Virus record (IMG/VR): IMGVR_UViG_2534681940_000043
Length of the DNA: 4,066 bases
Strand: one strand, 5' to 3'
Source: a virus
Lineage: Duplodnaviria; Heunggongvirae; Uroviricota; Caudoviricetes
Shown here: one piece after another, positions 937-1,452 of the stretch
How positions within the stretch are numbered: position 1 is the first letter of the stretch
Layout: every line of letters begins with the position of its first letter
Translations under genes and position numbers: made by a program
Notes under the pieces: generated by a model
What the model was told of the DNA's origin: nothing
The model's database searches: none
Seen by the model: the letters and a program-made list of their open reading frames with translations, nothing else

Positions 937-1452
937 ATGGCGTTAACACACCGCGAACTCTGTCAGATTGCGTACAAGTTCCTTAAGCGCAACGGGTTCA
1001 AGGTTTGTTTTCATGACCGCTTTATAGCTGTAACCAGTACCGGAGAACAGCCAGATGCTATGGGATTCAGAAATTCAGCATCATGCCTGATAGAGGCGAA
1101 ATGTTCTCGTGCTGACTTGTTGGCAGATAGAAAAAAGCGTTTTCGTAAAAATCCGTCTCTTGGAATGGGCGACTGGCGATTCTTTATTAGTGAGCCGGGA
1201 ATTATTTCAATTGAGGATTTACCACCTGGCTGGGGATTACTTCACGTTGTTAACGGAAGAGTACGGAAAGTACATGGGTGGCCCAAGGGTAATTGCTGTT
1301 GGGGTAATCCTGACGATAAGCCATTTACTGGAAATAAGCAGGTTGAATGCGATTACATGTTGTCTGCATTAAGGCGCATGGAGTTGAGAGGGCACCTTAA
1401 TGAAATATATGACGGTGTAATTGTTAATAAGAAAGAAGGAAACGCGGCATGA
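937..1452 (+). CDS. PD-(D/E)xK nuclease-fold protein, MmcB-like (putative DNA repair/nuclease)
   Basis: 171 aa from ATG 937. The ORF-track start at 907 is TTG without an SD, so ATG 937 with AAGGAG is preferred. Canonical motif GEQPD(40)...LIE(53)AK(55): Asp codon at 1054..1056, then E-x-K 13 residues later. Size and motif layout fit the MmcB-like family as recalled. Stop TGA 1450..1452 overlaps the next start. Confidence 0.7.
   Translation: MALTHRELCQIAYKFLKRNGFKVCFHDRFIAVTSTGEQPDAMGFRNSASCLIEAKCSRADLLADRKKRFRKNPSLGMGDWRFFISEPGIISIEDLPPGWGLLHVVNGRVRKVHGWPKGNCCWGNPDDKPFTGNKQVECDYMLSALRRMELRGHLNEIYDGVIVNKKEGNAA

Follow-up and report, generated by a model that had tools for sequence, protein, structure and literature searches.

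The stretch of DNA analysed here (the window; 4,066 bp of IMG/VR record IMGVR_UViG_2534681940_000043) forms the early-left (exo-xis) end of a lambdoid prophage of the Shiga-toxin type. It contains, at positions 937 to 1452, a gene encoding a protein of 171 amino acids (aa). That the gene product has a PD-(D/E)xK fold and is a remote homologue of MmcB, lying outside the curated MmcB models, is well supported. On the evidence below, it is probably a stand-alone, metal-dependent DNA endonuclease of an MmcB (PF06319) sister family, with a specificity for DNA structure or damage.

The 171-codon gene and its prophage

The window is a mosaic, with pieces that are 95-99% identical to VT1-Sakai, YYZ-2008, PhiR5_1 and many Stx1 and Stx2 phages. 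In YYZ-2008, the corresponding block sits downstream of N, kil, gam, bet and exo. The open reading frames (ORFs) of the window are all on the plus strand and are closely packed, with frequent ATGA overlaps, and the features discussed are listed in Table 1.

The reading frame of the nuclease gene is established. A program-made ORF list begins the same frame at TTG 907 but ATG 937 is preferred, as it is preceded by AGGAG at 926-930, as the upstream ORF has its stop codon at 933-935, and as the resulting 171-aa form is the form of the protein cluster, present on at least 1000 contigs and annotated as a 'hypothetical protein'. With the upstream stop codon so positioned, the two genes are translationally coupled. 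A preliminary description, made from the sequence alone, had located D40, E53 and K55 at particular codons of this ORF, and translation confirmed these assignments. P39-D40 are encoded by 1051-1056 (cca gat), with D40 at 1054-1056, and I52-E53-A54-K55 by 1090-1101 (ata gag gcg aaa), with E53 at 1093-1095 and K55 at 1099-1101.

Table 1. Features of the nuclease gene and of the integrase-proximal end of the window. Conservation is given for 150 representatives at 50% identity, with the number of sequences aligned at each position as the denominator.
Feature	Positions	Strand	Remarks
Shine-Dalgarno AGGAG, six bases before ATG	926..930	+	read from sequence
Coding sequence, 171-aa MmcB-like PD-(D/E)xK protein	937..1452	+	ATG 937 to TGA 1450-1452
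H5 codon, conserved His on helix alpha-1	949..951	+	H in 129/133; role putative
D27 codon, acidic residue on strand beta-1	1015..1017	+	acidic in 136/138; aligns with conserved E28/E29 of MmcB
E37-Q-P-D40, 'PD' half of active site, beta-2	1045..1056	+	E37 145/146, D40 145/146
E53-A-K55, '(D/E)xK' half of active site, beta-3	1093..1101	+	E53 148/149, K55 148/149
S57-R-x-D60-(F/L)-x-x-D64-x-x-K67-x-x-R70	1105..1146	+	D60, D64, K67 and R70 each 149/150; signature common to MmcB proteins
G76-M-G78-D-W-R81-F, entry to beta-4, invariant Gly/Arg	1162..1182	+	G78 150/150, R81 149/150; R81 aligns with invariant R76 of MmcB
C-terminal helix E137...R146-R147	1345..1377	+	E137 130/133; R146 and R147 ~118/132; aligns with 'AARRL' helix of MmcB
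Excisionase gene (DUF1233)	2492-2746	+	family match
Integrase gene	2780-4066	+	family match; closes the window

Fold, homology and active site

An AlphaFold2 model, based on a 30-sequence alignment, has a predicted local distance difference test (pLDDT) score of 80.2 and a predicted template modelling (pTM) score of 0.76. Its secondary structure elements are in the order alpha1-beta1-beta2-beta3-alpha2-beta4-beta5, followed by a C-terminal helix. The alpha-beta-beta-beta-alpha-beta core of the PD-(D/E)xK fold, expected from the nuclease fold proposed in the preliminary description, is present, with D40 lying where beta-2 begins and E53/K55 where beta-3 ends (strands predicted at 41-45 and 48-54). 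Foldseek, suggested there as a check, returned 3dnx as the best match, at 3.1e-6, and as the sole match below 1e-3. This structure is of SPO1766 of Ruegeria pomeroyi, an MmcB-family protein of PF06319 (formerly DUF1052), and DUF1052/PF06319/3dnx constitutes family 92 in a survey of PD-(D/E)XK proteins (PMC3424549). Matches in BFVD include phage proteins named 'MmcB-like'.

Profile comparisons establish that the likeness to MmcB, already suspected from protein size, is true homology. A profile built from 50 diverse relatives matches 3dnx at an E value of 7.4e-5 and, when aligned by hhalign with 18 MmcB proteins, gives a probability of 97.9% and an E value of 4.5e-13 over 120 columns. The residues so paired, family member first, are D40 with D39, E53-x-K55 with E53-x-K55, S57-R-x-D-F-x-x-D with S57-R-A-D-F-x-x-D, K67 with K66, R81 with R76, and 'ALRR' with 'AARR' in the C-terminal helix. 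Single-sequence searches returned much less. The window protein has no Pfam match at an E value of 1 or better, no NCBIfam match and no PADLOC match, and a PDB search with the single sequence gave only noise. The Pfam MmcB model is matched by 14 of the 50 relatives, all weakly (best E 2.9e-4), and PHROG 9263 and 631, both of unknown function, match strongly, with phrog_5429 ('DNA repair protein') matching weakly. Since the protein misses the Pfam and NCBIfam MmcB models, we treat it as a member of an unmodelled sister family.

The motif on its own is weak evidence, as a bare D-x(8-25)-[DE]-x-K arises in 59% of shuffles of the protein, with the fuller PD...hh[DE]xK arising in 0.4%. It is taken as real because the residues are conserved, and it is conservation together with structure that carries the argument. 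In the aligned sequences, H5, the acidic residue at position 27, E37, P39, D40, E53, K55, S57, R58, D60, D64, K67, R70, G78, R81, W99-G-L and E137 are retained at ~97-100%. The MmcB signature E-C-K-S-S-R-A-D-F-x-x-D-x-K that follows beta-3 is also present; the window reads IEAKCSRADLLADRKK and the family consensus is IECKxSRxDFLADxKK. The string S-R-x-D-F-x-x-D-x-K is invariant in MmcB proteins and the segment from S57 to R70 probably contacts DNA phosphates.

Such conservation bears on the idea that the protein is catalytically inert, a DNA-binding or regulatory protein that has kept only the nuclease fold. Active-site motifs are occasionally lost, as in one relative (P0152) in which H and V replace E53 and K55, and other genes that lie in the exo-xis region have been reported to affect the choice between lysis and lysogeny (PMC7093339, PMC3824215). 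The acidic and lysine set is, however, kept in ~99% of diverse members, which is hard to explain without catalysis, and we regard an inert protein as highly improbable. The published modelling of exo-xis proteins did not cover the nuclease gene. P0152 (alignment A2) also has R in place of E37, with the remaining fold signature intact, and may be an inactivated paralogue.

The active site predicted in the preliminary description, D40/E53/K55, aligns not only with D39/E53/K55 of MmcB but also, in the family profile, with D42, E55 and K57 of Sulfolobus Hjc, the catalytic residues of that enzyme. This raises the alternative that the gene encodes a phage Holliday-junction resolvase, dimeric and Hjc-like or similar to T7 endonuclease I, that debranches DNA before packaging. 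The Pfam Hjc model (PF01870) has no match to the window protein, and is matched at sub-threshold levels by 33 of the 50 diverse relatives (best E 1.3e-4). The small size and the position in replication modules are also reminiscent of T7 gene 3. Against a resolvase, the helix-1 glutamate of Hjc is not conserved, the corresponding position 7 being E in 66, D in 28, Q in 11 and A in 7 of 133 aligned sequences, and H5 is conserved instead. In some phages, NinG or RuvC is encoded immediately adjacent, and lambdoid phages normally already carry Rap or RusA. A dedicated resolvase is therefore an unlikely description of this family.

Distribution and neighbouring genes

Proteins identical (100%) to the window protein are Upf89.0 of phage P7 and proteins of Shigella phage Ss-VASD and Stx2a phages. 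The DNA of the gene is present in 931 of 5,426 complete Escherichia coli genomes (17%), and 250 of the 1,300 places at which it occurs are on plasmids. When 1.84 billion cluster representatives were searched with a profile, 3,315 relatives were identified at E <=1e-3 and 2,436 at E <=1e-10, counted as representatives at 50% identity. Further carriers include Vibrio phages and Ackermannviridae. When one genome per species was scanned, members were found in Geobacter, Pelobacter, Maridesulfovibrio, Chromohalobacter, Stenotrophomonas, Pseudomonas, Hymenobacter and a planctomycete, and foremost in Terriglobia (Acidobacteriota), in dozens of genomes. The Acidobacteriota proteins score ~150 bits on the family profile versus only ~17-28 bits on an MmcB profile.

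The Terriglobia genes (loci L093-L165, for example L130 4407-5930 and L098 8266-8862) are in a conserved chromosomal synteny. In 28 loci the gene directly upstream, in the same orientation, encodes a CHAD-HD/Ppx-like protein; recR and dnaX are convergent downstream, and a gene with an Ogt-type DNA-binding domain is a few genes away; there is no methyltransferase partner. A single chromosomal copy maintained by vertical descent in this way speaks for an ancestral activity that does no harm to intact DNA, and so fits a repair or structure-specific enzyme better than one of the restriction type. A gene conserved in synteny in this way is unlikely to encode an indiscriminate DNase.

In the Stx1 prophage of O157:H7 (YYZ-2008, VT1-Sakai type), the gene has a 2-nt deletion plus a substitution in the codon for the catalytic E53. 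The window sequence ATAGAGGCG (1090-1098) is replaced by AT--TGGCG (L001, YYZ-2008, ~6620-6630), and the gene is split into two annotated ORFs. This frameshifted allele is present in at least 215 E. coli records and probably results from one clonal event. Recurrent counter-selection was considered as the cause and was not adopted, as the genomes belong to one clonal lineage and a single event suffices.

The genes that flank viral members were evaluated at 76 non-redundant loci (80% identity clusters), giving 152 flanking positions. Immediately upstream there are six DNA methylases (four of them C5), three Ead/Ea22 proteins and, at one locus each, a DnaC/IstB-like protein, a DnaA-like protein, a primase Zn-ribbon protein, an SNF2 helicase, a Ref nuclease and RuvC. 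Downstream neighbours are NinB (2), DnaB (2), NinG, SSB, YbcO, two methylases, an RNA ligase, an HNH protein and others. In the siphovirus Vibrio phage vB_VpS_C2, the nuclease gene is located between a helicase gene and a primase gene and, in the Klebsiella Ackermannviridae phage FKP14, it is separated from a primase gene by only a homing endonuclease. Clustering of the neighbours by BLAST across 32 viral clusters identified no conserved partner. The nuclease gene thus has no fixed partner, and in phages it is flanked by genes for replication, recombination and DNA methylation.

Several unrelated phages have a DNA methyltransferase gene that abuts or runs into the beginning of the nuclease gene (L068 3166-5004, L075 3384-4988, L077 3866-4996 and L005 3391-3999). 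In the first three the enzyme is of the C5 type, and the layout recalls dcm-vsr or a compact restriction-modification pair. One explanation would be a restriction-like or host-DNA-degrading nuclease, with a role in defence or host takeover, from which the phage DNA is guarded by modification. The restriction-enzyme fold, the methyltransferases that are immediate neighbours at 8 of the 152 positions, including the four C5-methylases directly upstream, and a further case in Vibrio phage D277 are consistent with this. So also are the Ackermannviridae carriers, whose DNA is hypermodified, and a gene two genes upstream in the window for a YfbR-like deoxyribonucleoside 5' monophosphate phosphatase. 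The window itself, however, encodes no DNA methyltransferase, and most loci have none adjacent. Approximately 25 residues are near-invariant across phyla, whereas sequence-specific restriction enzymes diverge rapidly. Also against this explanation are the absence of a PADLOC match, the solitary Acidobacteriota gene in its conserved synteny, and the nearest relatives, which are MmcB and Hjc rather than any characterised restriction enzyme. A restriction-like role is, on these grounds, improbable.

The same C5-cytosine methylase genes, abutting or overlapping the nuclease start in L068, L075 and L077, could be read as indicating a methylation-linked repair nuclease, a Vsr analogue that nicks the mismatches or lesions resulting from cytosine methylation by the co-encoded methylase. 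The genes dcm and vsr overlap in a similar manner, and Vsr is similar in size to the nuclease protein. But a C5 methylase is upstream in only 4 of the 76 clusters and there is none in the window, and the family also occurs beside N6 methylases and in contexts with no methylase. Structural similarity to Vsr was tested and not found. We give a general Vsr-like role very little credence.

The preliminary description had taken the coupling to the upstream gene, which it described as encoding a coiled-coil protein, as a sign of a regulator or partner. This is not supported. The upstream protein of the window (348-935) has an Ea22-like C-terminal module, and a homologue of it is found beside the nuclease gene at just 2 of 85 related loci; as a dedicated partner it is rejected, on this count and the three Ead/Ea22 neighbours among the 76 viral loci. 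Tight coupling is the norm along the whole of this promoter-free early operon. A loose modular link does exist, as some Salmonella prophage proteins (P0091, P0093 and P0104) have an Ead/Ea22 leader of ~60 aa, with QHLQ/NRQ repeats, fused ahead of the nuclease domain, and a C-terminal (EL)n repeat tail after it. These fusions fit the modular shuffling typical of the region better than a dedicated complex. Other N-terminal extensions are present in P0135 (428 aa) and P0134 (258 aa).

Searches of the window (1-4066, both strands) found no match to a sigma-70-like promoter, with 7.0 +/- 3.1 expected from shuffles, a depletion that fits one long antiterminated early transcript. Of the CTGT-N8-ACAG pattern sought as a sign of SOS (LexA) regulation, there is only one perfect copy, at 785-800 within the upstream ORF, and the number of matches is what chance would give (82 of 200 shuffles contain at least 2). 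The YfbR-like HD-domain gene, classified by PHROG as 'deoxyribonucleoside 5' monophosphate phosphatase', is represented by its 3' part at 1-357, and five further prophage loci (L009, L012, L026, L033 and L035) have a homologue 2-3 kb upstream of their nuclease gene. Downstream, a 68-aa ORF (1802-2008) matches the DUF551 model at its C-terminus, and there only over model positions 1-16; its YYZ-2008 counterpart has 120 aa, and the ORF has probably been truncated or recombined in the window. A 27-codon ORF absent from the ORF list (2005-2088; MSWPDAIVTLGVVFAAAFVVFSICRWG) has a strong AGGAGG 7 nt upstream and an ATGA overlap with the preceding stop codon, and looks like a small hydrophobic membrane peptide.

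Proposed activity and comparison with known systems

From the MmcB homology (PMC9578287), the weaker kinship with Hjc and the genomic contexts, we infer that the protein is catalytic, acts on DNA and is structure-specific, and propose the following mechanism. Upon prophage induction, the gene would be transcribed within the early-left (exo-xis) operon. In the protein, D27, D40 and E53 would coordinate one or two divalent metal ions and K55, as the catalytic lysine, would position the attacking water, with the DNA backbone gripped by the S-R-x-D-F-x-x-D-x-x-K-x-x-R segment, R81 and the R146/R147 helix. Cleavage would be directed by DNA shape or damage rather than by sequence, with branched, stalled-fork and lesion-containing replication or recombination intermediates as the presumed targets.

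Several observations weigh against a structure- or damage-specific endonuclease. The window protein is below threshold on every curated model, and the spatial clustering of D27, D40, E53 and K55 is predicted from alignments rather than from a measured superposition. The literature, as far as it could be reached, reports no biochemical activity or substrate for this family or for MmcB. Frameshifted at E53, the gene is evidently dispensable in the O157:H7 Stx1 prophage. Finally, RuvC, NinG or YbcO genes adjoin the nuclease gene in some phages, so that its product is not simply the junction resolvase of those phages.

A more specific possibility, to be entertained only tentatively, is that this is a nuclease for lesions or stalled forks, spread by phages and shared with the Acidobacteriota as a core repair gene or, where there is an overlapping C5-methylase, a methylation-linked (Vsr-like or restriction-like) nuclease. 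If so, phage biology would gain a new activity, and the poorly understood exo-xis region its first enzymatic function. The gene is carried by approximately one in six complete E. coli genomes, by Shiga-toxin phages, by phage-plasmids of the P1/P7 type and by several groups of lytic phages. The MmcB-like assignment therefore provides a testable activity for a very common component of phage 'dark matter', and easily handled relatives with which to work out the biochemistry of the MmcB family. The family is common and uncharacterised, and constitutes an unmodelled yet recognisable branch of a very well known superfamily rather than a new kind of system.

The closest known system is MmcB (PF06319; 3DNX; Caulobacter MmcB), an SOS-induced putative PD-(D/E)XK endonuclease required for resistance to mitomycin C and cisplatin (PMC9578287). 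The two families share an acidic residue on beta-1, D on beta-2, E-x-K on beta-3, the S-R-x-D-F-x-x-D-x-K string, an Arg on beta-4, a C-terminal helix with RR and a size of ~150-170 aa. Their identity is, however, only ~23-25%, scores are below the Pfam and NCBIfam thresholds, and H5, E37, G-M-G-D-W-R, W99, E137 and an extra loop at ~114-133 are specific to the family described here. MmcB itself is mainly alphaproteobacterial (PMC3424549), whereas this family is found chiefly in phages and prophages from many phyla, and also on Acidobacteriota chromosomes; the nuclease gene of the window is in a phage early operon. Hjc (PF01870; 1HH1, 2EO0, 4TKD) is similarly a minimal PD-(D/E)xK domain, of ~140 aa, with the D, E and K aligned and with weak Hjc matches among the relatives, but the structural match is much weaker, the C-terminal part differs and the catalytic helix-1 Glu has no conserved counterpart. 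Type II restriction endonucleases (SdaI, 2IXS; NgoMIV, 1FIU) and the CRISPR ancillary nuclease Can2 (8BAO/7BDV) are a further comparison; unlike these, the present family has no recognition or sensor domains and no obligatory methylase partner, and is far more highly conserved across hosts.
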